From: Candidatus Methanoperedens sp.
Lineage (GTDB): Archaea; Halobacteriota; Methanosarcinia; Methanosarcinales; Methanoperedenaceae
NCBI GenBank assembly: GCA_049690315.1
Contig: JBAVMS010000041.1
Location: 1-32,000 of the forward strand
Reading direction: 5' to 3'
Length of the DNA: 32,000 nucleotides
The position numbers and the translations under genes are program-made. Below are positions 911-32,000 of the stretch, piece after piece (the first letter of the stretch is position 1; the number at the start of each line of letters is the position of its first letter). The notes under the pieces are model-generated. The model was given only the letters and a program-made list of their open reading frames with translations, searched no databases and was not told the DNA's origin.

Positions 911-960
911 GTTGTGAGCTTCCTGTTCCAGGTCTATCCCGAATGTTTCTTTTATTGACT

Positions 961-6581: not shown

Positions 6582-6815
6582 TTATTAAGTATTTATTATT
6601 AAGGTATTACTAAAAATCATGCTGCTTAAGGAAATATGTATATGCTTTATTTCTATCATGACTGGATTAAATGTTTATTCTTAAGATTATATGGTTCTCT
6701 GTGTCAATTCATAAAGAAACCATCACCTTTAGAGACTATTTTTCAATCAGTAGATAATTTTCTATCAAGAGAATTAATGAAAATTAGATATTCCATAATC
6801 TTGATGATTCAGGTA
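6582..6815. repeat. direct repeat copy A (about 235 bp, AT-rich, non-coding)
   Basis: It aligns by eye with 8753-8988 at roughly four-fifths identity. Long identical blocks include ATTACTAAAAATCAT, TGCTTAAGGAAATATGTATATGCTTT, ACTATTTTTCAATCAGTAGATAATT and ATTAATGAAAATTAGATATTCCATAATC. Track ORFs inside the two copies are not conserved in frame. Confidence 0.8.
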
Positions 6816-6987: not shown

Positions 6988-7800
6988 ATGTTTACACCAG
7001 TGTTTAACAATGACAAAAAAAGCGTAGAATTGAGCCCACTGGAACACAAGATATATTTCAGCTTCTATGAGAAAGAGGTATTTAGAAGCAGTGACGCATA
7101 TAAAATCATCCCGAACAAGAAAACAGCAAGGCAGATTCTTTTCAGGCTAAAGAATAAAGGCTTTATTAAGCAAATAAAACGCGGGCTCTTTGCGATCATC
7201 CCGGCGCAAATGATAGGTAAAGGGTTTACTGTTGATAAAATATTGATAGCATCGAAATTAACAGAACCTTATTTTATATCTCATCATACGGCTTTGGAAA
7301 TCCACGGTGCAGCACAATCATATTTTAATATAGCATACATCTCAGCAAATAAAATATTAAAGCCGTTTGAATTTCAGAATATCTCATATAAATTCGTGAC
7401 TACGGAACATATGTTCGGAATAGAGCAACTTCCAAGGGGAAATCTGAAAATAAGTGTTAGCGACAAGGAAAGAACAGTTTTGGATTGCATCAGAAATATA
7501 GAATATGCGGGCGGCATTGAAGAGCTTGCAAAAAGTACCTCGGCATTTCCCAATTTGGATTATAAAAAAATGCTGAAATATTTGAATCTTTTTGGCGAGA
7601 AAAGCCTTTTCCACAGGACAGGATTCATTTTTGGCAGCCTGAAGAGCGAGTTGAATGTTCCCAATGATTTTCTTGATAAAATAAGGGAAAAACTCAGCGC
7701 AAGACCTTATTATTTGTTGCCAAATAAAAAAGGACTCTATATAAAAGAATGGAATATTATCGCGCCTGAAAACATAAAAGAGATGATGAAAATTGCTTAA
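6988..7800 (+). CDS. abiEi: AbiEi-family antitoxin / transcriptional regulator (type IV TA)
   Basis: An N-terminal wHTH-like region (LFRLKNKGFIKQIKRGLFAIIP) is followed by the AbiEi hallmark stretch PYFISHHTALEIHGAAQS and VSDKERTVLDCI. The gene overlaps the downstream NTase gene by 8 nt. Confidence 0.8.
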   Translation: MFTPVFNNDKKSVELSPLEHKIYFSFYEKEVFRSSDAYKIIPNKKTARQILFRLKNKGFIKQIKRGLFAIIPAQMIGKGFTVDKILIASKLTEPYFISHHTALEIHGAAQSYFNIAYISANKILKPFEFQNISYKFVTTEHMFGIEQLPRGNLKISVSDKERTVLDCIRNIEYAGGIEELAKSTSAFPNLDYKKMLKYLNLFGEKSLFHRTGFIFGSLKSELNVPNDFLDKIREKLSARPYYLLPNKKGLYIKEWNIIAPENIKEMMKIA

Positions 7801-8722
7801 GCCTGACAGGAAATATTTTGAAAGCCTTTCTGAAAAGACAAATTTCCAGAAAGATATTCTGGAAAAGGTTTTCAGGCTTGCTGATTTGCTGAAAATGATT
7901 TATGAAAATGAATTTCTGAAAACAAGGCTTGTAATAAAAGGCGGGACAGCGATAAATTTCATCTATTTCAAGATGCCCCGCCTTTCCGTTGACATTGATT
8001 TCAACTTTGTGTCCGATGAAGCAAGGGAAGACATGCTGAAAAGCAGAGAAAATATTGACAGGATTTTGACAAAGATTTTCATGATAGAAGGATATGAAAT
8101 AGAAAAGGTCCAGCCTTATGCGCTTTTGCAGTACAACCTGAAATACAACAATACTGCCGGAAATATTGACAGGATAAAGATTGAGATAAATTTCTTGGAG
8201 CGCATTCCTGTTTTTGATATTGCGGACATGAAAATAAAAGTATTGGATAATCCTGAATTCAAAGTTAAGACTTATCAGATGGAAGAATTGTTTGCAACAA
8301 AAATGAGGGCGTTGATGACAAGAGCCGCTGCAAGGGACTTGTTTGATGTTTACATGCTTCTGAAAAGCGGTCTTGAGTTCGATGAAAGAATGTTGAAGAA
8401 ATGCTTTGTTTTCTATTTCTGCCTTGCGGAAGATTTCAGAAAATTGAATGTGGAGAGCATAAGCGAAATAAACCCGGTTGAGATAAAGAAATTCCTACTT
8501 CCTTTGATGGAGAAGGGAAAGAAAGTAGACATGAGTGAGGTTTCCGGGAAAGTGAAAGAATTCGCGTCCAAGATGCTTCTGCTGGATAAGAACGAACAAA
8601 AATTTATCGAGCTTTTTTATGAGCAGAAAAAAGTGGAATTGGATTTGCTTTTTGAGGATTTGAAATATAATACAAAACTGAAAAATCATCCAATGATTGA
8701 TTGGAGATTGAAAAATATGTAG
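7793..8722 (+). CDS. abiEii: AbiEii/AbiGii-family nucleotidyltransferase toxin (DUF1814)
   Basis: The NTase motif is present (VIKGGTAINFIY ... RLSVDIDFNF), followed by FATKMRALMTRAAARDLFDVY, which is typical of the family. The start is TTG, overlapping the abiEi stop. Confidence 0.8.
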   Translation: MLKPDRKYFESLSEKTNFQKDILEKVFRLADLLKMIYENEFLKTRLVIKGGTAINFIYFKMPRLSVDIDFNFVSDEAREDMLKSRENIDRILTKIFMIEGYEIEKVQPYALLQYNLKYNNTAGNIDRIKIEINFLERIPVFDIADMKIKVLDNPEFKVKTYQMEELFATKMRALMTRAAARDLFDVYMLLKSGLEFDERMLKKCFVFYFCLAEDFRKLNVESISEINPVEIKKFLLPLMEKGKKVDMSEVSGKVKEFASKMLLLDKNEQKFIELFYEQKKVELDLLFEDLKYNTKLKNHPMIDWRLKNM

Positions 8723-8752: not shown

Positions 8753-8988
8753 ATTTATTAAGTTTTTTATTTATTAAGTTATTACTAAAAATCATATTGC
8801 TTAAGGAAATATGTATATGCTTTTTTCTTTCACGACTGAACGATATGGTTATTTCTAAGATCATATTGTTCTCTGTATCAATAAACAAAAAAACCATCAC
8901 CCTTAGATACTATTTTTCAATCAGTAGATAATTCTTTATCGAGAGCATTAATGAAAATTAGATATTCCATAATCCTGATGTCCTGGTA
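8753..8988. repeat. direct repeat copy B (partner of 6582-6815)
   Basis: See copy A. It begins about 30 bp after the abiEii stop. Confidence 0.8.
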
Positions 8989-9506: not shown

Positions 9507-10472
9507 ATGGAGGTTAAAGGCATGAATGCAGTGAAGGATTTTCTTGAGGAACTCGAGCTATTCGGCAAATCATATAATTATATCTATGGCACAAGGTTAA
9601 CTCTTAGAGATTTTGCCAGGTCATGCAAAAGCGAAAACGGAACCGAGTTTGATGTCCCCACAGATGCTACCGAGGATGATATCAAGAAATGGATAAAGGA
9701 TATGATGGAAAGAGGTGTGGGCGAGAGGTCACGAATCAGGGGCATCGTAGTAATACAGAGATTTTTCGTATTTCTGATGGAATCGCCCAAATATAATCTA
9801 AAATATAATCCTGTGAGTAGGATAGCAAAGCAGCTTCCAAAGCCGAATACGCAGACTCGGAGACCAATAAAAAGCTTGGAAGAAATATCAATAATGCTCA
9901 GGAGTATTTTTCACGTAAGAGATAGGGTGATGGCTGTGCTCCTTGCCAAAACAGGCATACGCGCTGGAGAACTCAGTGCCCTTGATTTAGAGGATGTGGA
10001 TTTTGAGAATAGAACCCTTAGAGTGGATAAACACATTGGCAATTTTTGTAGCCTCGCAATAGCTAAAGGCAGAAAGAACAAGGTTGAAAGTATGATTCCT
10101 CTGGATGATGAAACCTTACGAGTTCTGAAAGTGTACCTTGCAATAAGGCAGCGGCGCAACACTAATGCATTGTTTATTTCGGGTCATGGAAACAGGATGC
10201 CCGTTGGAGAGGTTAGCAGGATTATAAAAAACTGGGCAGTCAAGACAGGGATGTGCAAGAACAGCAACAAGACAGAGGAGAAAATCACACCTCACTTTTT
10301 CAGAGCATGGATCACCTATCAGCTTCAAATCAATGGCTGTAACGCCATAGTCATAGATGCCATAAGAGGAGATAAAGCCTCTAACATGCGGACATTCTAT
10401 GCAAACCAAGTGCTGCCGTTTGAGGAAATAAGAAGGGAATACGAGCGAACAGTACCAAAGTTTGGAATATGA
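9507..10472 (+). CDS. tyrosine recombinase / phage-type integrase (XerC/D-like)
   Basis: The catalytic-domain pattern is present: TGIRAGELSALDLEDVDF (Arg), TPHFFRAWITYQL (H-x-x-R) and RGDKASNMRTFYA (terminal Tyr). An N-terminal SAM-like domain is also present. An alternative start lies at Met6. Confidence 0.85.
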   Translation: MEVKGMNAVKDFLEELELFGKSYNYIYGTRLTLRDFARSCKSENGTEFDVPTDATEDDIKKWIKDMMERGVGERSRIRGIVVIQRFFVFLMESPKYNLKYNPVSRIAKQLPKPNTQTRRPIKSLEEISIMLRSIFHVRDRVMAVLLAKTGIRAGELSALDLEDVDFENRTLRVDKHIGNFCSLAIAKGRKNKVESMIPLDDETLRVLKVYLAIRQRRNTNALFISGHGNRMPVGEVSRIIKNWAVKTGMCKNSNKTEEKITPHFFRAWITYQLQINGCNAIVIDAIRGDKASNMRTFYANQVLPFEEIRREYERTVPKFGI

Positions 10473-10522: not shown

Positions 10523-11442
10523 CTTTCAATCCTCATTTTATAAGGATACATTCTGAAATTAACGCAATTTTTCCGCTGAAAGCGGGTGATGGGTATCTTT
10601 CAATCCTCATTTTATAAGGATACATTCTGAAATATCTATCGTCACACCAATATGCACAAAGCATATCAACTTTCAATCCTCATTTTATAAGGATACATTC
10701 TGAAATCGGCGCGAAAGCCATTTCATGCCCGGCTTTCGAACTCTTTCAATCCTCATTTTATAAGGATACATTCTGAAATTTGTACAGTCCGAAATGTCAT
10801 ATTCCTGTTTTGCCTGCTTTCAATCCTCATTTTATAAGGATACATTCTGAAATTAAAAGAACATTGTGATGTGAATTGTGAGCTTGCTGACTTTCAATCC
10901 TCATTTTATAAGGATACATTCTGAAATTTCAAAAAAAGGTATTCGCTGGTATGCACATAATACCTTTCAATCCTCATTTTATAAGGATACATTCTGAAAT
11001 TAACTCTCCTCTGAGGGGTGCCCAGCTGCCGCGGTATACTTTCAATCCTCATTTTATAAGGATACATTCTGAAATTCGGTGCCGAGTTGCTTGAACCGAT
11101 GATTACGGTATTCTTTCAATCCTCATTTTATAAGGATACATTCTGAAATAATTCAATTCACGTTTCAAACCCCAGCCGGACATCGCTTTCAATCCTCATT
11201 TTATAAGGATACATTCTGAAATAAAGAATATCAAGCCGGATTCGATGATACGATCTTCTTTCAATCCTCATTTTATAAGGATACATTCTGAAATTCAAAG
11301 AGTGGATATTTGATTTCCAGCTTATAAAAGGTCTCTTTCAATCCTCATTTTATAAGGATACATTCTGAAATTTAACTGGTCTGGATGGTAGGGCTTTGGG
11401 GTTTTCTTTCAATCCTCATTTTATAAGGATACATTCTGAAAT
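10523..11442 (-). CRISPR. CRISPR array: 13 identical 37-nt repeats and 12 spacers of 34-40 nt
   Basis: The plus-strand repeat is CTTTCAATCCTCATTTTATAAGGATACATTCTGAAAT, with starts at 10523, 10597, 10670, 10743, 10817, 10891, 10964, 11039, 11113, 11186, 11258, 11335 and 11406. On the minus strand it reads ATTTCAGAATGTATCCTTATAAAATGAGGATTGAAAG. That version ends in the canonical 8-nt tag ATTGAAAG and contains a 7-bp stem (ATCCTTA/TGAGGAT, one T.G wobble) with a TAAAA loop. The sense strand is therefore minus, matching the adjacent cas genes. Confidence 0.97.
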
Positions 11443-11554
11443 AGCCCATGAAACATGGCTTTTTTACGGTTTAAAGCTTCCTATTACCTCGAATTCCAGG
11501 CTCATTTGTGAAGGTCTAAAAGTCGTAAGGGTATTTATCAAGGTCTGCACAGAC
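11443..11554 (-). promoter_or_regulatory. putative CRISPR leader
   Basis: This is a 112-bp non-coding stretch between the cas4 stop and the first (leader-proximal) repeat in the minus-strand sense. On the minus strand there are TATA-like elements: GATAAATA at 11539-11532 and CTTTAAAC near 11470-11477. A bulged palindrome (11443-11460) directly abuts repeat 1. Confidence 0.5.
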
Positions 11555-24693: not shown

Positions 24694-26706
24694 ATGGATG
24701 ATGATAAGCTAAAAATTGAATTGACCGGAAATCCGTTTGTAGATACAGGAATAGGAGTAATTGCTTCCCTAGCAAAGCTCAATGAGGTTAATCAATTAAC
24801 TTTAGTAGATATAAAGTCAGTTTATGGGGATGGCTCGCAACTAACTGAGTGGAACTCCAAATTAAAAACCTTTTCTCAGGTATTTGGAACAAATAACCCA
24901 CTATTTCATCCATCGTATGGCTTCAAGAAAGGTTTAGGACCATCTGATATAAACAAAAGAATATACAAAAGCACTCTTGATGGTTTACTTTTTGAGATAA
25001 AAAAATCTGAAAATGGCTCAAGGTGCTGGGCTTGTGGCAATCGTACAGATTTTGATTTTGCTCAAGTTTGTAAGAAAGCTGTTGAAGCTAATGGGAAAAA
25101 AGCACCTGAAGAAAAATGGGTAGGAAGGGACTGGTTCCCTTTAGCTGGAAGTTTAGGAAGCGATGCTCAAGCACTTCCCGCAGCTTCAAGACCTCCCCAT
25201 ATATGCCCCCAATGCCTTTTTGCAATTCATTATTTGCCAATGGGATTGATTTTGCTTGACGGTCGTTTGGCAGTCTTTCAATGCTCATCTCCTGAATTCT
25301 GGTATGAACTTATTAAGGATATTGTAAATGAAATTAAAGAACGAGTACATGCTGGAATTTACGACACTTTAGGAGGTAAAGAAGGAAGCAGGGCGGTTAT
25401 GCAAAGACTTTTGAAATTATTTGAGCGTCTCCAAAGAGAAAAATATTATTATGGCAGAGTTCCCGAAGGAATAGCTCTTTATGTATGGCGATTTAGCAAT
25501 TCTGGGGCTTCTCCAGAATGTTTGATAGAAGAAATTCCAAACCTAGCACTAACATTTTTGTGGGAGGCTGCACAAAATAATTTATCTTCTGAGATTGAAT
25601 CACTTGTTGGTTCCGAAGGGAAAAATCCACGATATTCTCTATTCCAATGTATCTTAAATGGACGCGATTATCCTAATCTATATCCTGAAGGGAAAAGAAA
25701 AGGTGCATCACCTAAACTTTTCGCCCTATATCAGATGCACATTCGTAACCATTCCACAAGAGCTTTACAAGTCGCGTATGAATTAGCAAAAGAGATATCT
25801 GAACAGGTTAGTGCAAAAGAACTAAAGCGTATTCAACGCCCTGAAGCATTTAATGAAGAGATGGTTCGAAACCAATTCAAGGCATACATGGTCAGGATGA
25901 CAGAAAAGGGAGATTTCGCTCTGGAAGATTACATTGACCTCTTTCCATTGAAGAACGGTGGGGGGATTACTGTGGAATGGAATGGTTGGAATTTCATTCG
26001 GTTTTACCTTTACCATACAAATGAAGATTTTCCGAGGATTGATGAAAAAAATCAGATTATCAATAAATCGAATCCACAATTATTTTATTATGCCGGGCTG
26101 ATATACAACCGTTATCTCCGTGATAAAGGAAAAGATCGGTTCCAAAAAGATGTTCTTGCACAAATAGATCGCAGAATTCGTGCACTTTGGCTTAGAAGCC
26201 AATTCGTTCAACTTGCAGAATCGGAAGATGGCTTTACTTATGGTCATTGGTCAAAACTTTGCAAATTAGATGATGAAAGGCTTTTTATTTCAGAATTGCT
26301 TTTTCATATGCGGTTGCTGTGGACACAGTGGATTTATGAAAATAAAACATCCGTGAATATTACAACACAACCATCCGACACAGAATCAACCGATGAATTG
26401 CCAGAACGTATAAAAACTTTAATCGAATTATTATTCACCGATTACGTAAATAGAAGAGGGCTCGACCGTTTCTATCGTGATATATTACTAAGACTTCGGC
26501 GAAAAGAGGTTGGACTTTTCTGGTTCAAGGACAAGCTTACAAAACAAGTATCTGAGGAAATTCAGCCTCTTACCGAAGAAGAATGGGAGAAGTTTTTAGT
26601 AAATGACGAAGGTCAAAGCATTAAAACTGAAAGGTTATTTCAGCTACATTTAGCTCTTGCAAATATTTATAGAGTAAAAGTATTTGAGGAAAACTTAAGG
26701 AGGTAA
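24694..26706 (+). CDS. cas8: type I large subunit, Cst1-like (Cas8a1/Cas8b1, CXXC-CXXC family)
   Basis: It is the first gene of a cas8-cas7-cas5-cas3 operon. Two CxxC pairs are present (CWACGNRTDF and CPQCLFAIHYLP), as in the Cst1 CXXC_CXXC family. The protein is 670 aa. Confidence 0.7.
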   Translation: MDDDKLKIELTGNPFVDTGIGVIASLAKLNEVNQLTLVDIKSVYGDGSQLTEWNSKLKTFSQVFGTNNPLFHPSYGFKKGLGPSDINKRIYKSTLDGLLFEIKKSENGSRCWACGNRTDFDFAQVCKKAVEANGKKAPEEKWVGRDWFPLAGSLGSDAQALPAASRPPHICPQCLFAIHYLPMGLILLDGRLAVFQCSSPEFWYELIKDIVNEIKERVHAGIYDTLGGKEGSRAVMQRLLKLFERLQREKYYYGRVPEGIALYVWRFSNSGASPECLIEEIPNLALTFLWEAAQNNLSSEIESLVGSEGKNPRYSLFQCILNGRDYPNLYPEGKRKGASPKLFALYQMHIRNHSTRALQVAYELAKEISEQVSAKELKRIQRPEAFNEEMVRNQFKAYMVRMTEKGDFALEDYIDLFPLKNGGGITVEWNGWNFIRFYLYHTNEDFPRIDEKNQIINKSNPQLFYYAGLIYNRYLRDKGKDRFQKDVLAQIDRRIRALWLRSQFVQLAESEDGFTYGHWSKLCKLDDERLFISELLFHMRLLWTQWIYENKTSVNITTQPSDTESTDELPERIKTLIELLFTDYVNRRGLDRFYRDILLRLRRKEVGLFWFKDKLTKQVSEEIQPLTEEEWEKFLVNDEGQSIKTERLFQLHLALANIYRVKVFEENLRR

Positions 26707-26710
26707 TGAA

Positions 26711-28090
26711 ATGAACGAGAAAAAAATAACTCATGTAACGGGAACTTTCCTTATCCAGGCGGATGCAGCTTTTCTAAACGGCGCTGGATTAGGAGAAGGC
26801 GAGGATCGCAATGTGACAATCCCTAAAACTTTTAGGGATGGAAAAAATGAAGTACCTTACGTATCTGCTCAAGCATGGAAACGATGGCTTAGGAATACCT
26901 TGGTAGAGGAAACAAAATGGCTTACAAGCGAGTCAAAAGCCATTGGCTGGAATCCTAAAGGTAATGTCAATAAAATCGCAGCAGAATTGAATCCTGTTGA
27001 TTTTACTGAGGATGATATCTTTGGCTATATGCGTGCAGAGGCAGGTCAAGGACGGAGAACAACTGGAGAAGAGGAAGAATTTGAGGAAGAAGTAGGAGGA
27101 AGAACTAAATCGGTGATGAGGGCATCTCCATTTATGGCGTCTCTTTTAGTTTCACTACGTTCTGCAGGATGGAGAGGGCAGGATGAAGGTTTCGTTCATT
27201 TGACGAAATATGACCCTCAAGCACTTGCAGAGGCAGAAGTAGAGAGGTTTCTTTCAGTGGTTGCTGAGAAAAAGCAAGATAAAAAGAAAAGCGTGTGGGA
27301 AAGACTGAAGGAATTTGATAATGATTTTGCCAGCAAAGTGAAATTACATGCAGACAAAAGTGAACTAGATGACCTAAGGAATCTTCTTTCAGCAAAGGCT
27401 AAGGAAAAAGACAAAGAAGTTAATGTTAATTTTATCGAGAACCCGTGCAGTCCGCTCCCCTACACCACTCGCTTTTACAATACCCATCTTCAGGGGATTT
27501 TCAGCCTCAACTATAGTCGGCTTGGTGTTTACTGGAATTTGGGAGACAGAATCGAACTGGAAGAAACTAAGGCAAAGAAACTTCTCCAAGAAGGAAAGGT
27601 CACAGAAGTTACAAATGAAGAACCTTACAAAACTTTAAGTGACAATGGAAAAATAGGAAAAATTTATAAGATTGCTGAAAAGGTCAAGCCTACTCCCAAA
27701 GATCGTGCATCTGCATTATTGAAAGCTCTTGCTGTGTTACGGGGAGGCGCAAAGCAAGCTCAATTTGGAACTGATGTTTCGCCTAAAGTATTGATACTTG
27801 CAGGCTTAACCTGTGGAAATCCGATATTTAATCATCTCTTTAAAGACGATCAAGAAGGACCAATCTTAAAGATTGAAACATTAAAAGAGATCATCAGAGA
27901 CTATGCAGACCGTATAGTTACTCCTGTTTTACTTGGCATTCGTTCGGGATATTTAAAGAATGAGAGCGAAATTAAAGCTTTAAATGAAACAAGGGTAAGC
28001 ATAGGAGAAGGAGAAAATAAGAGGGAAGTTGAAATATTAGTTACAACGCCAGTTGAGGCTGCTCAAAATATTAAACAATACTTACCATGA
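26711..28090 (+). CDS. cas7: Cas7 (Cst2/DevR/Csa2 family) with long insertions
   Basis: Motifs are AAFLNGAG, VPYVSAQAWKRWLRNTL, DIFGYM and LAVLRGGAKQAQFGTDVSPKVLIL. AAGGAGG lies upstream of the ATG. At 459 aa it is long compared with the roughly 300 aa I remember for this family. Confidence 0.85.
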   Translation: MNEKKITHVTGTFLIQADAAFLNGAGLGEGEDRNVTIPKTFRDGKNEVPYVSAQAWKRWLRNTLVEETKWLTSESKAIGWNPKGNVNKIAAELNPVDFTEDDIFGYMRAEAGQGRRTTGEEEEFEEEVGGRTKSVMRASPFMASLLVSLRSAGWRGQDEGFVHLTKYDPQALAEAEVERFLSVVAEKKQDKKKSVWERLKEFDNDFASKVKLHADKSELDDLRNLLSAKAKEKDKEVNVNFIENPCSPLPYTTRFYNTHLQGIFSLNYSRLGVYWNLGDRIELEETKAKKLLQEGKVTEVTNEEPYKTLSDNGKIGKIYKIAEKVKPTPKDRASALLKALAVLRGGAKQAQFGTDVSPKVLILAGLTCGNPIFNHLFKDDQEGPILKIETLKEIIRDYADRIVTPVLLGIRSGYLKNESEIKALNETRVSIGEGENKREVEILVTTPVEAAQNIKQYLP

Positions 28091-28857
28091 CATCAATTCC
28101 AGCTTTACATGTACGATTAGAGGGTATTACGGCATCTTTTCGCCTCCCTCTTGCAATCAGCGGCACTCAAATAAGCACTCCTGTGCCGTCCTACAGTAAT
28201 CTACTTGGTATAATCAGCGCCTGCGCCGGTCGCATTGTTAAGCCAAATGAAACAAGAATTGGATTTGAATTTCACTGTCAATCTCATGATATCGAGATAG
28301 AACGAAAAGACCGGTTAGCTTTAAAAGGTGGAAAGCTTGGCCCTATTAGCAAAACAAATGCTCCAAAAGATTACAGGCTTCATGTAAAAACCAGCTCTGA
28401 AAGTTTTAGTGGATTCTTAGAAGAAATACGTCAAGGTGTAGGTTATAGGCAAGTTTACTGGTATCCAAAAATGGATCTTTATGTTACAAACCTTGATCTC
28501 AAGAAAGCCTTTGATAAACCAGCAGCAACTCCGTGTTTTGGTCGTTCTCAAGATATCGCGTGGATTAAATTTGTTGAGCCAATTGATTTGCAACCAGTCT
28601 CAAAAGGTGCAATTGGTCCTACTTTAATCCCAATGCCTCAACTTGGTGTGCCTGGTTTAGTAGTGCGATTACCAGAGTGGATGGAAAATACAAGAATGGG
28701 TTATACCAGAGAACCAGGTCCATTTGGGATCTATCAGGCAATGATTCCAACAACAGATTTTTACTGTGTAATCGAAAGAAAGAATTTATATCATCCCTCT
28801 GATGCTGAAAGAAATGACCATGTTATTTACTTGCACGAATGGATAAAGGAACAATAA
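28087..28857 (+). CDS. cas5: Cas5 (type I)
   Basis: The N-terminal Cas5 signature is LEGITASFRLPLAISGTQISTPVPSYSNLLGIISACAGR. The gene overlaps the cas7 stop by 4 nt. Confidence 0.85.
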   Translation: MTSIPALHVRLEGITASFRLPLAISGTQISTPVPSYSNLLGIISACAGRIVKPNETRIGFEFHCQSHDIEIERKDRLALKGGKLGPISKTNAPKDYRLHVKTSSESFSGFLEEIRQGVGYRQVYWYPKMDLYVTNLDLKKAFDKPAATPCFGRSQDIAWIKFVEPIDLQPVSKGAIGPTLIPMPQLGVPGLVVRLPEWMENTRMGYTREPGPFGIYQAMIPTTDFYCVIERKNLYHPSDAERNDHVIYLHEWIKEQ

Positions 28858-31082
28858 ATACAATTTTGGCTAAAAGCACAGGTGAAACACTCTCAGAACA
28901 TACTATTGAGTGTTTAAAAGCCTCTCAAGTGCTTATAGATTCACTTCCAATCTCAGAAGATAAAATGAAAGTTCTGAGAAATGATGTCTTTCTTGCAGTT
29001 GCAATGCATGATGTTGGGAAGGCAGCCACAGGCTTCCAGAAAGTTCTAAGGAATGAACAAGAAAATTGGCAGAGAAAACGACATGAAATTATTTCTGCTT
29101 CTTTTGCATCTGGTATTGAAGGAATTTCTCCTGCTGTTATCTTTGCTATTTTAACCAGTCATAAAAGTATTCCTTCGGATTTTATCTCGCATAGCTCTGG
29201 ATGCCTGCTTTGGGAACAAATACCCTTTGTATGGAGTGAAACTAACGTCTGGAAGGAAATGGCTAATGAGTGGAAACAAAATGTTATTCCATTCATGGAG
29301 GAATGGAAAAAAATTTGTGACTATCTGAGTCGGAATATTACTTTTGGTGAGTTAAAACCAATATCATTACAACCCGCATGGCTCGAAAGTAACTATGGGA
29401 AAAAAGGTCAAAGACAATCTATCCCATTTCAGGATCGTTATTATGCCTCAATTGTTCGTGGTCTTACAATCGCATCTGATCACCTTGGAAGTGCCAAAAA
29501 AATACCTACTAAAATTCCAGAACTCAGTCGATTTTCTGTAATCAAACAAAATCCAAGACCATTTCAAGAACTTATTGGTAAAATTGAAGGATCAGCAATC
29601 TTAAGAGCACCTACTGGTTCTGGTAAGACCGAGGCTGCTTTGCTATGGTCTCAGAAAAATCAAAGGCGCAATGGCAGACTCTTTTACATTCTTCCTTATA
29701 CAGCCAGCATTAATGCAATGCATCAACGCCTAGCGAAAATTTTTGGAGATAGATATGTAGGAATTCTTCATCACCGTGCAACTTCTGCCCTCTACAGTAT
29801 GTTTGAAGCTGAAGCAGACATTGCTTCCCGTCTTGATAAACAACATATAGCAAAAACCCTTACTGAATTGGCTCATGAAATATGGTTTCCTATAAGAGTA
29901 TGCACTCCACATCAAATATTACGTTACACATTGCGAGGGAAAGGATGGGAATATATGCTTGCCGAATTCCCTAATGCTTGTTTCATCTTTGATGAAATTC
30001 ACGCTTATGACCCAAGAGTGGTTGGACTTACTCTGCGCTCGGCAAAACTAGCAACTCAGTGGGGAGCAAGATGCCTTTTTCTCTCTGCAACATTGCCTGC
30101 ATTTCTCCGTAAATTGATAACTGAGAATATTGAAAATGTGCCATTTATAGAACCAAATCCTGAACAAGACGAAGATAAAAAAATACTGGATAAAAAACGC
30201 CATATTGTTGAGATAAAGGATGGGTCTATAATAGATCATATAGAAACAATAATACAAACAATTCGAAACTGTTCATCGACCCTTATAGTTTGTAATCATG
30301 TAAGAACCTCCCAAGAAATCTACTCCTTATTGAAAGAAAGACTTCATGGTGAAGACATAAAGCTTCTTCATGGTCGATTTAATCAAGAAGATCGGAATCG
30401 GATCGAAGATGGAATTATTAACAAGTCATTACCTAAAGTTTTAGTAGCCACACAAGTTGTTGAAGTTAGCTTAGATGTGGATTTTGGGCAAGCATTTTTC
30501 GAGCCTGCACCCATTGATGCATTGATTCAGCGAATGGGTCGCGTGAACAGGTCCGGTAAGAAACTGCCTGCAAAAGTGATAATATTTATGGAACAGGTTA
30601 ATCCATTCAATCTTTATTGTGAATGTTCTGATGAATCACACAAACCTACTTGCAGAGTAAAATTGACGATAGAAGAACTGCAAAAAATCAAAAATCCAAT
30701 TAGTGAGAAAGATCTTGTCGAGGCAGCAGACAGAGTTTATGGCGAAGGATATCAAGGAGAAGACAGAACTAAATTTGAAGAGGGATTTAATCACCCTGAC
30801 TTGGCAGAATTTGAAGAACATTTTCTTGCAGGTGCTTATAGTGATTGGGTGGAAGATCTCATTGAGAAGACGGATGGAGTTATAGAGGTACTGCCAAAGT
30901 GTCTAATAAGAGAGTACAAAAAAAGAGAAGAAGATGGTCTATGGATAGAAGCTAATAGTCTTTTAGTGCCTGTACGGGAGAAATCGTTGGCTAGGTTAAA
31001 ACCAAAAATTGACATGTCCAATGATCCATGGATAGCCAATCTTAGTTATACATCCGATAAAGGACTTGAAATAAAAAAATAA
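28839..31082 (+). CDS. cas3: Cas3 (fused HD nuclease and SF2 helicase)
   Basis: HD motifs are LSEHTIECL and AVAMHDVGKAATGFQ. Helicase motifs are APTGSGKTEAAL (I), FIFDEIHAYD (II), LSATLP (III) and QRMGRVNRSG (VI). Confidence 0.95.
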   Translation: MDKGTINTILAKSTGETLSEHTIECLKASQVLIDSLPISEDKMKVLRNDVFLAVAMHDVGKAATGFQKVLRNEQENWQRKRHEIISASFASGIEGISPAVIFAILTSHKSIPSDFISHSSGCLLWEQIPFVWSETNVWKEMANEWKQNVIPFMEEWKKICDYLSRNITFGELKPISLQPAWLESNYGKKGQRQSIPFQDRYYASIVRGLTIASDHLGSAKKIPTKIPELSRFSVIKQNPRPFQELIGKIEGSAILRAPTGSGKTEAALLWSQKNQRRNGRLFYILPYTASINAMHQRLAKIFGDRYVGILHHRATSALYSMFEAEADIASRLDKQHIAKTLTELAHEIWFPIRVCTPHQILRYTLRGKGWEYMLAEFPNACFIFDEIHAYDPRVVGLTLRSAKLATQWGARCLFLSATLPAFLRKLITENIENVPFIEPNPEQDEDKKILDKKRHIVEIKDGSIIDHIETIIQTIRNCSSTLIVCNHVRTSQEIYSLLKERLHGEDIKLLHGRFNQEDRNRIEDGIINKSLPKVLVATQVVEVSLDVDFGQAFFEPAPIDALIQRMGRVNRSGKKLPAKVIIFMEQVNPFNLYCECSDESHKPTCRVKLTIEELQKIKNPISEKDLVEAADRVYGEGYQGEDRTKFEEGFNHPDLAEFEEHFLAGAYSDWVEDLIEKTDGVIEVLPKCLIREYKKREEDGLWIEANSLLVPVREKSLARLKPKIDMSNDPWIANLSYTSDKGLEIKK

Positions 31083-31159: not shown

Positions 31160-31252
31160 GGCCAAATCCTCATTTTACGAGGATAATCTGAAATCGTAAT
31201 AGCCTTCCAGGTCTATCTTTCAATCCTCGTTTTATAAGGACAATCTAACAAT
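31160..31252 (-). ncRNA. degenerate two-repeat mini-array (psi-repeat / 22-nt psi-spacer / psi-repeat); candidate CreA/CreR-like crRNA-like RNA
   Basis: On the minus strand, 31252-31217 reads ATTGTTAGATTGTCCTTATAAAACGAGGATTGAAAG, with the tag ATTGAAAG intact. The spacer at 31216-31195 is ATAGACCTGGAAGGCTATTACG. The second unit at 31194-31160 reads ATTTCAGATTATCCTCGTAAAATGAGGATTTGGCC; its hairpin is kept but its tag is lost. Family and orientation match the main array. Confidence 0.6.
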
Positions 31253-31286
31253 ATCAAATAGGCTTCAATAAAGATAAATCTTGTGT

Positions 31287-31321
31287 TCAATAGAACTGGA
31301 AGGCTACCAAAAACTATAAAT
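31287..31321 (+). promoter_or_regulatory. predicted psi-spacer target site (PAM-like TCA plus 17-nt seed match) abutting a BRE/TATA-like element
   Basis: 31290-31306 (ATAGAACTGGAAGGCTA) equals psi-spacer positions 1-17 except position 6. TCA lies at 31287-31289. CCAAAAAC and TATAAAT lie at 31307-31321, about 90 nt upstream of the ATG at 31413. Confidence 0.5.
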
Positions 31322-31412
31322 CAAAATAAGACGATATTTACCTGCAATTGAGCAGGGAGCAGGTTTCGGCCAAGAAATCACATGCTTACTGCCCAATACA
31401 GGAGCGTATATA

Positions 31413-31649
31413 ATGAAGGTATTCAACCAACAAATAACTTTCGGTCGCCTGATGAGGGTCATCAGGATAGGAGGGGAACGGACTCACCGACCTTTTCCAG
31501 TCTTATGTGCCGAACAGGATAAAATATACAAAGTTAGGACATGGGATATTGATATAGCTATGAGTGTTAAAGGCGGAGATTATGTGCTCGTGAACCAATA
31601 TGAAATAATAAAATTATATGGCAATAAAATTGCGGCGGTGGTGAAATGA
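31413..31649 (+). CDS. small hypothetical protein (78 aa)
   Basis: AGGAG lies 8 nt upstream of the ATG. The stop overlaps the ATG of a following 45-codon ORF (ATGA at 31646-31649). No motif recognised. Confidence 0.5.
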   Translation: MKVFNQQITFGRLMRVIRIGGERTHRPFPVLCAEQDKIYKVRTWDIDIAMSVKGGDYVLVNQYEIIKLYGNKIAAVVK

Positions 31650-31783
31650 CGAAACCCTCCCGAATAGTCTTTGAATCGTTTTGTGATATGGCGGTAATGC
31701 TGGGTTTTAAAATTGAACGACACCGCAATAAACTGATAATTTTCTTTAATAACGACAATCAATCCGATGATATACTGCATTAA
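31646..31783 (+). CDS. small hypothetical protein (45 aa), translationally coupled to the 78-aa ORF
   Basis: I translated it by hand (MTKPSRIVFESFCDMAVMLGFKIERHRNKLIIFFNNDNQSDDILH), since it falls below the track size cutoff. Start and stop overlap with the upstream ORF. No motif recognised. Confidence 0.35.
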   Translation: MTKPSRIVFESFCDMAVMLGFKIERHRNKLIIFFNNDNQSDDILH

Positions 31784-31855
31784 TTTTATTATAAAAAAAT
31801 CATTTCAAAGGCGATCAATGCATAGATTTAAGGATGCATTTGCAGATTAACATTC

Positions 31856-32000
31856 ATGCTCCCCCTCGCCAAACTCACTGCCCGCCTCGTCTTCCCCACT
31901 TCGGTCACTTTCCCCTACTGGATGGGCAACACCTTTCGGGGCGGCTTCGGCATACACCTGCGCCGCGCCTGCTGCCCTGATTTAAGAAGAGATTGTTATT
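31856..32000 (+). CDS. N-terminal fragment of a RAMP protein, possibly a Cas6-type endoribonuclease (continues beyond window)
   Basis: The frame is open from the ATG at 31856 to the window end (48 codons: MLPLAKLTARLVFPTSVTFPYWMGNTFRGGFGIHLRRACCPDLRRDCY). The pattern of hydrophobic strands, then G-x-x-F-R-G-G-F-G, then Cys-rich spacing, resembles from memory the N-termini of the Cys-containing Cas6 RAMP family. G+C is 38/60 in the first 60 nt, far above the neighbouring sequence. Confidence 0.4.
   Translation, partial: MLPLAKLTARLVFPTSVTFPYWMGNTFRGGFGIHLRRACCPDLRRDCY

Follow-up and report, generated by a model that had tools for sequence, protein, structure and literature searches.

A candidate CreA-type guide and a conserved two-protein operon between cas3 and cas6 in CRISPR-Cas loci of Methanoperedenaceae

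What is the role of a two-unit mini-array that stands directly behind cas3 and whose single short spacer resembles the promoter next to it? The question is raised by a stretch of 32,000 nucleotides from Candidatus Methanoperedens sp. (assembly GCA_049690315.1, contig JBAVMS010000041.1, positions 1 to 32,000 of the forward strand; hereafter the window), which holds a composite CRISPR-Cas locus of type I-B and type III. Between cas3 and cas6 (segment 31083-31823), the mini-array, a target sequence, a promoter and a bicistronic operon of two open reading frames (ORF1 and ORF2) make up what appears to be a self-contained cassette, with the mini-array transcribed divergently. It is likely, with a probability of roughly three in four, that a short CreA-like guide from the mini-array lets Cascade repress the promoter of ORF1-ORF2. 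What carries this reading is the way in which the mini-array is built, a match between guide and promoter that is significant, conserved and of 6-nt periodicity, joint changes in guide and target, the adjacency of a promoter-like element, and the coding status of ORF1 and ORF2.

Repeat type and orientation for reading the mini-array are set by the main array of the locus, whose repeat is ATTTCAGAATGTATCCTTATAAAATGAGGATTGAAAG in minus-strand reading and whose spacers are 34-40 nt long. Read in this direction, the mini-array consists of the repeat-like unit PsiR1, the pseudo-spacer PsiS and a second unit, PsiR2 (Table 1). It thus has the CreA-type layout of two repeat-like units derived from the CRISPR repeat of the locus itself, of which the seed-side unit carries the handle. 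The 5' half of the near-canonical PsiR1 has diverged, while its hairpin and the exact 8-nt handle are kept. PsiR2, with 90% identity to the repeat core, has lost its handle part (TTGGCC vs TGAAAG) and has a strengthened hairpin, in which a T.G wobble has become a C-G pair; it would provide the 3' handle and a second Cas6 cut. About 23 nt upstream of where PsiR1 begins, a TATA box is predicted; the promoter role proposed for it follows from the distance that usually separates TATA box and transcription start in archaea. Minimum free energy folding of the mini-array transcript is uninformative, as the palindromic repeats pair together just as in a normal repeat-spacer-repeat unit.

PsiS is identical to the plus strand at positions 1-5 and 7-17, and among positions 18-22 position 20 alone matches. 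The match starts precisely where PsiS joins the repeat handle. On the guide-identical strand, the protospacer is preceded by TCA, which resembles a protospacer-adjacent motif (PAM) and differs from the AAG of the repeat, and its PAM-distal end overlaps CCAAAAAC, a sequence like a B recognition element (BRE) that adjoins TATAAAT. The first-pass annotation that had singled out this element described both the match and the mini-array (a diverged PsiR1 with exact tag, a 22-nt spacer, and a PsiR2 with the C-G change and without its tag) in these terms, and all its coordinates and sequences hold on re-examination. The resemblance of PsiS to the promoter goes far beyond chance: allowing up to three mismatches to the first 17 nt of PsiS, the 32-kb window contains PsiS itself and one further site, the target, compared with 0.07 expected matches in 100 shuffles, none of which yielded two. 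A second exact match to the seed ATAGANCTGGA at 927-937 (minus strand) was rejected as a target, its flank being GGG and not the TCN found beside the target in all loci (see below). It lies just after an ORF of 198 aa (961-1557), inside another candidate ORF, and is probably a chance match, with about 0.06-0.1 expected. Apart from the target, no seed match with a TCN flank occurs in the cas8b promoter region or elsewhere in the window.

For comparison, contigs of 19 database homologues of the 78-aa ORF1 were used together with one metagenome pattern scan. The same cassette is found in 10 further distinct loci (L017, L026, L007, L010, L018, L028, L014, L021, L016 and L022), making 11 with the window. 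Each of them contains PsiR2, PsiS, PsiR1, a minus-strand TATA-like box, the target, CAAAAA plus a TATA-like box, the leader, ORF1 and the 45-aa ORF2, and the match between pseudo-spacer and promoter is present in each related locus that still has a mini-array (11 distinct loci, window included). The metagenome scan for the seed-plus-handle pattern added one new locus (L026), its other results being a known contig, one ordinary array and two matches due to chance. A search for copies in viruses found none. The cassette stands behind type I-B modules in the window and L017, and the short contig of L026, which shares their guide, shows no effector genes. In L007, L010 and L018 it follows type I-D modules (cas10d, Csc2 and Csc1, with Csc2 matching TIGR03157 above the cut-off), and L028 has a guide of the I-D type on a contig that begins inside the mini-array. 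A third module type with split cas3'/cas3'' precedes the cassette in L014, L016, L021 and L022. Its companions are constant, namely the same repeat type and, wherever the contig extends far enough, an AF_1859-type cas6. The arrangement persists between loci with ORF1 proteins of only about 62-70% identity and with different effector modules.

Within this arrangement, conservation is unevenly distributed. PsiS is 22 nt long in 10 of the 11 loci that carry one and 24 nt long in L016. The PsiR1 handle of I-B and I-D loci reads ATTGAAAG, and that of the four third-group loci reads ATTGAAAA. In nine aligned loci, the PsiR2 hairpin with the adjoining CTGAAAT and the AGATAAA that is the plus-strand form of the mini-array TATA box are invariant, and the handle part of PsiR2 is degenerate in all nine. 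Besides this handle part, the 3' end of the spacer and the sequence between the elements have diverged freely. Agreement between guide and target, tabulated by position over 10 loci, is complete at positions 1-5 and 7-10 (10/10) and absent at position 6 (0/10). It then amounts to 7/10, 5/10, 9/10 and 9/10 at positions 11 to 14, to 4/10, 6/10, 7/10 and 2/10 at positions 15 to 18, and to 5/10, 8/10, 6/10 and 0/10 at positions 19 to 22. The dips at 6, 12 and 18 are the hallmark of type I Cascade pairing, in which every sixth guide base is flipped out. Functional work on CreA demonstrated this pattern (PMC8501985), and it was also noted in I-F1 mini-arrays (PMC10120712).

Guide and target have also changed together. 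Six loci have G:G at position 10 and the other four T:T, position 14 carries either G:G or T:T, and at position 11 pairing is restored in L022 (T:T), where its relatives have a T:A mismatch. Such covariation across orthologous loci had been suggested as a check by the first-pass annotation. Its description of the complementarity as seed-only, however, is too narrow, because in the third group (L021, L022) the similarity of PsiS and target spans all 22 nt with scattered mismatches; what stays constant is a short guide with a strict core at positions 1-5 and 7-10. Every locus has TC at -3/-2 beside the target, with A, T or C at -1. One assembly (GCA_040960995.1) carries two cassettes, L019 and L022, whose guides differ (I-D type and split-cas3 type, respectively) and share seed positions 1-5 and 7-9 as well as the TC flank. 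If both stem from one organism, each guide could act on the promoter of the other.

The sequence downstream of the target is equally regular. In all loci, CAAAAA and an A/T-rich octamer occur at a fixed distance before a conserved leader, with the target directly upstream. The predicted BRE/TATA element lies about 20 nt before this leader, which is followed by ORF1; the first-pass annotation likewise had it pointing at the ORFs starting at 31413. ORF1-ORF2 transcripts are predicted to start near the conserved sequence TTTACCTG. Structure prediction for the leader gives 18 pairs, two of them with compensatory changes, and the leader is probably structured. No Rfam family matched anywhere in the window, leader included, and an upstream mini-ORF conserved in frame was not found. 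The leader is more conserved than parts of the coding region, with identical sequences in L007 and the window. It might control translation or be bound by the ORF1 or ORF2 product. A scan for sigma-70 promoters and terminators is uninformative, the host being an archaeon.

By their substitution patterns, ORF1 and ORF2 are real genes under purifying selection. ORF1 has 19 homologues (62-92% identity, 17 invariant residues) and a ratio of nonsynonymous to synonymous substitution rates (dN/dS) of 0.17-0.33. The homologue encoded at L010, P0005, is listed at NCBI as MPEBLZ_01885 of Ca. M. nitroreducens. For ORF2, which has seven database homologues, dN/dS is 0.2-0.4 at dS >0.4. ORF2 comprises 45 aa in every intact locus with ORF1, and in most loci the ORF1 stop and the ORF2 start overlap or adjoin (ATGA in the window). 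The AlphaFold model of ORF1 (predicted local distance difference test score, pLDDT, 76) is a small beta-barrel resembling the oligonucleotide/oligosaccharide-binding (OB) fold; its Foldseek matches in the PDB are weak and generic (OB, PAN-N and HypC folds; best E 6.6e-3). That of ORF2 (pLDDT 81) consists of one helix and a beta-hairpin, and Foldseek found no fold match for it in the PDB. A profile search of 1.8 billion representatives recovered one already-known member and no family member beyond those known. The same search returned P0027 and P0028, secreted repeat proteins of about 800 aa from unrelated organisms that share a GGEKTHR-like motif. The most conserved motif of ORF1, IGGERTHRPF, resembles LELGGEKTHRTF, which is repeated 5-11 times in these proteins, a likeness at the level of the motif only.

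Taken as a mechanism, Cascade-mediated repression would proceed as follows. Minus-strand transcription would start from the mini-array TATA box, and Cas6, presumably the product of the AF_1859-type cas6, would cleave inside PsiR1 and PsiR2 to release an RNA of about 59 nt that consists of ATTGAAAG, the 22-nt PsiS and a 3' hairpin handle. This RNA would be loaded by the presumed effector, the type I-B Cascade encoded by cas8b-cas7-cas5 (24694-28857). After recognition of TCA (TCN across loci), the guide would pair with the minus strand at positions 1-5 and 7-17 and form a short R-loop. Because the guide is short and only partly complementary, Cascade would bind without licensing cleavage by Cas3; consistently, an I-F1 mini-array with Cascade could not trigger target cleavage (PMC10120712). 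Bound Cascade would then occlude the BRE/TATA element and repress ORF1-ORF2, and possibly the mini-array too. As the PAM side of the target abuts the mini-array's own BRE/TATA, the guide may limit its own synthesis. ORF1-ORF2 would be derepressed once Cascade, Cas6 or the guide is missing or blocked, an anti-CRISPR being one possible cause.

By analogy with known modules, the derepressed products may be a growth-arresting or toxic protein pair, the likeliest single output, at somewhat less than even odds. With such a pair, the cell would come to rely on a functional Cascade, as in CrePA or CreTA, either as an addiction or as an abortive response to anti-CRISPRs. More tentative still is the view of the cassette as a portable, effector-agnostic guard of CRISPR-Cas, in which one CreA-type guide and a new two-protein toxin stand behind three type I modules in Methanoperedenaceae and travel with the AF_1859-type cas6 and the repeat. 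If true, this would be the first archaeal module in which CRISPR represses a protein toxin, and a natural case of one guide serving different Cascades. Damaged copies offer circumstantial hints of toxicity. In the lineage of L013 (1-1360) and L012 (1-330), ORF1 is interrupted near codon 12 by an insertion sequence (DDE_Tnp_1, with TCAGTACTTCCGAATAG as terminal inverted repeats), which separates it from its promoter and the mini-array. In L013 ORF2 measures 43 aa; in L012 no cas6 is found within 5 kb downstream. The decayed cassette in L029 (1000-1480) has kept PsiR1 and lost PsiS, PsiR2, the mini-array promoter, the target and the BRE/TATA element by deletion; its ORF2 is cut to 39 aa, and genes of a PIN-domain toxin-antitoxin system occupy the place of cas/Cascade genes upstream. 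Damage to copies that have no intact guide or Cascade context would fit a cost of unrepressed expression.

Several points weigh against repression by a Cascade guide or against a toxic output. The damage in L013 and L029 is equally expected from neutral decay of an unused remnant. Neither ORF1 nor ORF2 matched Pfam, NCBIfam, PHROGs or PADLOC, and thus no toxin, defence or regulator family was found for them in these collections; their folds are uninformative on function. The joint changes can be traced to only about three evolutionary events, the loci concerned being close relatives, and much of the match is invariant across loci and therefore uninformative on selection for pairing. In L016, a 1-nt indel restricts pairing to about positions 1-12. 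The I-D loci carry TCT at the target, and TCN is not the PAM reported for studied I-D systems, which is GTH. For the 12 spacers of the main array, no protospacers were found from which the PAM of the system could be read: the three newest, with every sixth base wild-carded, had none in IMG/VR, all 12 concatenated gave no match to GenBank phages, and the related loci fetched for comparison contained none either.

Could the guide serve to tune cas6 instead? In this alternative, repression would act by read-through on cas6 and any downstream cargo, as in CreR-like autoregulation, and ORF1 and ORF2 would be passengers or RNA-handling factors; the OB-like fold of ORF1 would suit the binding of nucleic acids. 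In the window and in L028, about 70-190 nt separate ORF2 from cas6, which has the same orientation and no strong terminator before it, the cassette is always accompanied by the same cas6 type, and I-B mini-arrays aimed at the region before cas6 are known (Shmakov et al., 2023; PMC10120712). However, a TATA element stands 24 nt ahead of the cas6 ATG. L002, the closest relative by cas3 (81% identity), is free of the cassette and has kept this cas6 promoter, and its homology with the window stops at the end of cas3 and resumes exactly at AGATTTAAGGAT. Hence, cas6 has its own promoter, the cassette is a discrete insert, and cas6 expression can dispense with it. Moreover, many loci have 0.3-3 kb of unrelated cargo, partly on the opposite strand, between ORF2 and the full cas6, and the only unit always directly following the target is ORF1-ORF2. 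Thus, cas6 is probably not the primary target, and autoregulation of this kind is unlikely. The first-pass annotation had called the element a CreA/CreR-like Cascade guide. The CreA part of this label is supported in silico by the conserved match, the dips at 6, 12 and 18 and the joint changes; the CreR part fits less well, as the regulated unit is a protein operon and cas6 is served by its own promoter.

The junction between cas3 and cas6 is variable even among close relatives. In L002, about 290 nt of unrelated sequence without a convincing ORF (8212-8495) lie between cas3 and the cas6 promoter. The cargo-bearing L007 and L014 carry a second copy of the cas6 promoter and of the first ~110 nt of cas6 immediately behind ORF2. 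In L018 and L022 the same 5' fragment of cas6 recurs at this place, with no promoter copy that could be recognised. In all four loci the fragment is followed by foreign cargo (HicAB, MJ0235-TumE, nucleotidyltransferase) and then by the full cas6. L007 and L014 break at the same point (after GCCGCGCCTGCTGC), and the left ends of their inserts are similar. With its duplicated fragments, shared break and cargo, the 5' end of cas6 has the look of a hotspot at which toxin-antitoxin cargo inserts site-specifically. Small minus-strand genes of 58-65 aa called after ORF2 in L014, L018 and L022 were discarded, being the antisense of the duplicated cas6 fragment.

A further alternative does without Cascade. 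PsiS and target form an inverted repeat with arms of 17 nt that are 73 nt apart, and it might act as an RNA hairpin within a transcript covering both arms or as a palindromic operator, possibly bound by ORF1 or ORF2, with the repeat units being incidental. Operator and attenuator elements are often of such form, and the ORF1 leader is itself conserved and probably structured. On the other hand, one arm starts exactly at the repeat-handle junction, TC is conserved beside one arm only, and the Cas6-type hairpins of both flanking units are clearly constrained in all loci. Neither a hairpin nor a dimeric operator predicts mismatches with a period of 6/12/18, and a minus-strand transcript would not hold both arms, because the predicted mini-array TATA box sits between them. 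An inverted repeat acting on its own is therefore very improbable. Hardly credible, finally, is a non-functional fragment of a decayed array whose likeness to the promoter is accidental or left over from a local duplication: degenerate terminal repeats and orphan repeats are common near cas genes and the full-length similarity in L021 and L022 could stem from duplication, yet the match is far above chance, the arrangement persists despite divergent ORF1 proteins and effectors, the seed is invariant, guide and target changed jointly, and the unconstrained parts diverged freely.

Around the cassette, the locus reads as follows (Table 1). The effector is of type I-B, with cas8b, cas7, cas5 and cas3 present and a Cas6-type repeat with the ATTGAAAG handle; the Cas3 protein is 81% identical to that of a Candidatus Methanoperedens metagenome-assembled genome. 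The window matches, with identity, a 25-kb Logan contig of run SRR28011619. The cas6-like protein matches the Cas6 models PF10040 and TIGR01877 weakly, both under the cut-off. To the right of the window (L001, 14590-22244), a BREX-type cluster (BrxL, PglZ) and a UvrD/PD-(D/E)XK helicase-nuclease gene are convergent to cas6, and the CRISPR locus thus belongs to a larger defence island. In the left part, two direct repeats (6596-6806 and 8771-8980; ~210 nt in total, 85-93% identity) bracket a 2.2-kb segment with an AbiEii-type toxin gene (7793-8722) and an upstream partner ORF (6988-7800). Next to this segment are the integrase gene (9507-10472) and the CRISPR array's trailer end. A duplicated promoter or gene start, or the ends of an inserted element, may account for the repeats.

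Table 1. Features of the window and, in the last row, cas6 fragments in related loci.
Feature	Position	Strand	Description
TnpB, AbiE toxin-antitoxin pair, integrase	left part of window		
Main CRISPR array	10523-11443	crRNAs (CRISPR RNAs) read from minus	13 identical 37-nt repeats, 12 spacers
cas4, cas1, type III module including cas10, csa1, cas2, csa3, ATPase		all minus	
cas8b	24694-26706	plus	Cas8b by PADLOC, E 1.2e-35
cas7/Cst2	26711-28090	plus	TIGR02585 at 9.2e-37
cas5	28087-28857	plus	matches TIGR01895 and TIGR02593
cas3 (HD + helicase)	28839-31082	plus	TIGR01587 at 1.2e-77, TIGR01596 at 7.6e-15; cassette directly after stop codon
PsiR2	31194-31160	minus	35 nt; hairpin ATCCTC/GAGGAT
PsiS	31216-31195	minus	22-nt pseudo-spacer ATAGACCTGGAAGGCTATTACG
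PsiR1	31252-31217	minus	36 nt; 3' end is the handle ATTGAAAG (31224-31217)
Predicted mini-array TATA box	31278-31272	minus	TTTATCT, minus-strand reading
PAM-like TCA	31287-31289	plus	5' of protospacer
Target (protospacer)	31290-31311	plus	31290-31306 is ATAGAACTGGAAGGCTA, matching PsiS at 16/17 bases
Predicted BRE and TATA box of regulated operon	31307-31321	plus	CCAAAAAC + TATAAAT
5' leader of regulated mRNA	31339-31412	plus	AAGAAATCA invariant; Shine-Dalgarno-like AGGAG
ORF1	31413-31649	plus	78 aa; small beta-barrel (OB-like) model
ORF2	31646-31783	plus	45 aa
cas6 own TATA region	31824-31835	plus	AGATTTAAGGAT; right-hand cassette boundary
cas6-like gene, 5' end	31856-32000	plus	AF_1859 type, 305 aa in full contig; PF27225
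Recurring cas6 5' fragments	L007 5372-5500; L014 4091-4300; L018 5320-5500; L022 1925-2125		compare window 31824-31970

How does the cassette relate to elements already described? The first-pass annotation saw no precedent for it with a Cst1/Cst2-type module in this kind of archaeon, which is too strong a claim, since Shmakov et al. (2023; PMC10120712) already described archaeal I-B and I-D mini-arrays with short spacers, mismatches at 6 and 12, and targets in cas or cargo promoters. Mention of the Methanoperedens lineage or of the ORF1 and ORF2 proteins was not found in the literature searched, including the main text of that study. The cargo-associated mini-arrays reported there share with the present element two repeat-like units around a shortened spacer, a partial seed match with a mismatch at position 6 (and, in several related loci here, at position 12), and a target in the promoter of non-cas cargo. 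Further common traits are a hotspot of toxin-antitoxin cargo, the existence of 'empty' relatives, and their frequency in archaeal composite I-B and type III loci such as the window. Those cargo cases, however, are of type I-D, with the cargo between cas3 and cas10d or upstream of the locus, whereas the cassette described here stands after the last effector gene and before cas6 and is common to three effector types. In CrePA from Acinetobacter type I-F (Shu et al., bioRxiv 10.1101/2024.01.05.574328), a PsiR1-PsiS-PsiR2 mini-CRISPR likewise lies beside cas3 in a module within the cas locus, and PsiS matches, with its first ~17-19 nt, a site ~100-120 bp ahead of a small protein-coding ORF, this site being flanked by a PAM (by a PAM-like motif in the window). 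The differences are the archaeal host with its BRE/TATA promoters, the effector (I-B, and I-D or the third type in relatives, vs I-F), and the length of PsiS (22 nt vs 30 nt in CrePA). The regulated unit differs as well: CreP is a protein toxin with a single KilAC domain, whereas the two coupled ORFs (OB-like 78 aa and 45 aa) encode candidate toxins with no detectable homology to any family, and searches of Pfam and PHROGs found no KilAC domain in either.

Haloarchaeal CreTA of type I-B (PMC8501985, PMC9458426) is similar in its two divergent pseudo-repeats, from which Cas6 generates an 8-nt 5' handle and a 3' handle (predicted here), and in a seed (1-5 and 7-11) that pairs with a PAM-flanked site (PAM-like in the window) overlapping BRE/TATA, positions 6 and 12 being irrelevant. 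CreT, however, is a tiny RNA toxin that sequesters a rare tRNA and is co-transcribed with creA in H. hubeiense, whereas the present target would control a conserved protein pair that is transcribed divergently from the guide, and the flanking motif is TCN and not TTC. The element therefore falls outside the definition of CreTA. It resembles CreR (bioRxiv 10.1101/2023.03.10.532045) and the crlRNAs of CRISIS (bioRxiv 10.1101/2024.12.27.630466) in its degenerate mini-CRISPR, its partial match and the repression of a promoter without cleavage, as proposed here. Yet CreR targets the promoter of the cas effector operon, and since the target here is not a cas promoter, the element is not a CreR either. 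CRISIS, in turn, targets recognisable defence systems in bacterial loci (archaea are unmentioned there), whereas no recognisable defence gene follows the target described here. With a two-protein operon as the regulated unit and a separate promoter for cas6, the element is closer to CrePA and cargo-regulating mini-arrays than to CreR or CreTA.

If confirmed, guide-controlled cassettes under CRISPR repression would extend to the ANME-2d archaea, methane oxidisers that host Borgs along with other large extrachromosomal elements, and a new small-protein pair would have its function tied to the loss or inhibition of Cascade. The junction before cas6 would be marked as a hotspot for the insertion of toxin-antitoxin cargo. 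A 22-nt guide with a seed at 1-5 and 7-10 and a TCN flank, kept behind three effectors, would also be a natural experiment on the pairing that permits binding without cleavage. Because the concept itself is established, the value of the locus lies in a well-supported new family and a concrete experimental target. Judged by its layout, the element appears to belong to the broader class of CreA-type guides that regulate cargo; to this established principle it adds a lineage, a two-protein family, and one cassette that stands behind three effector types.

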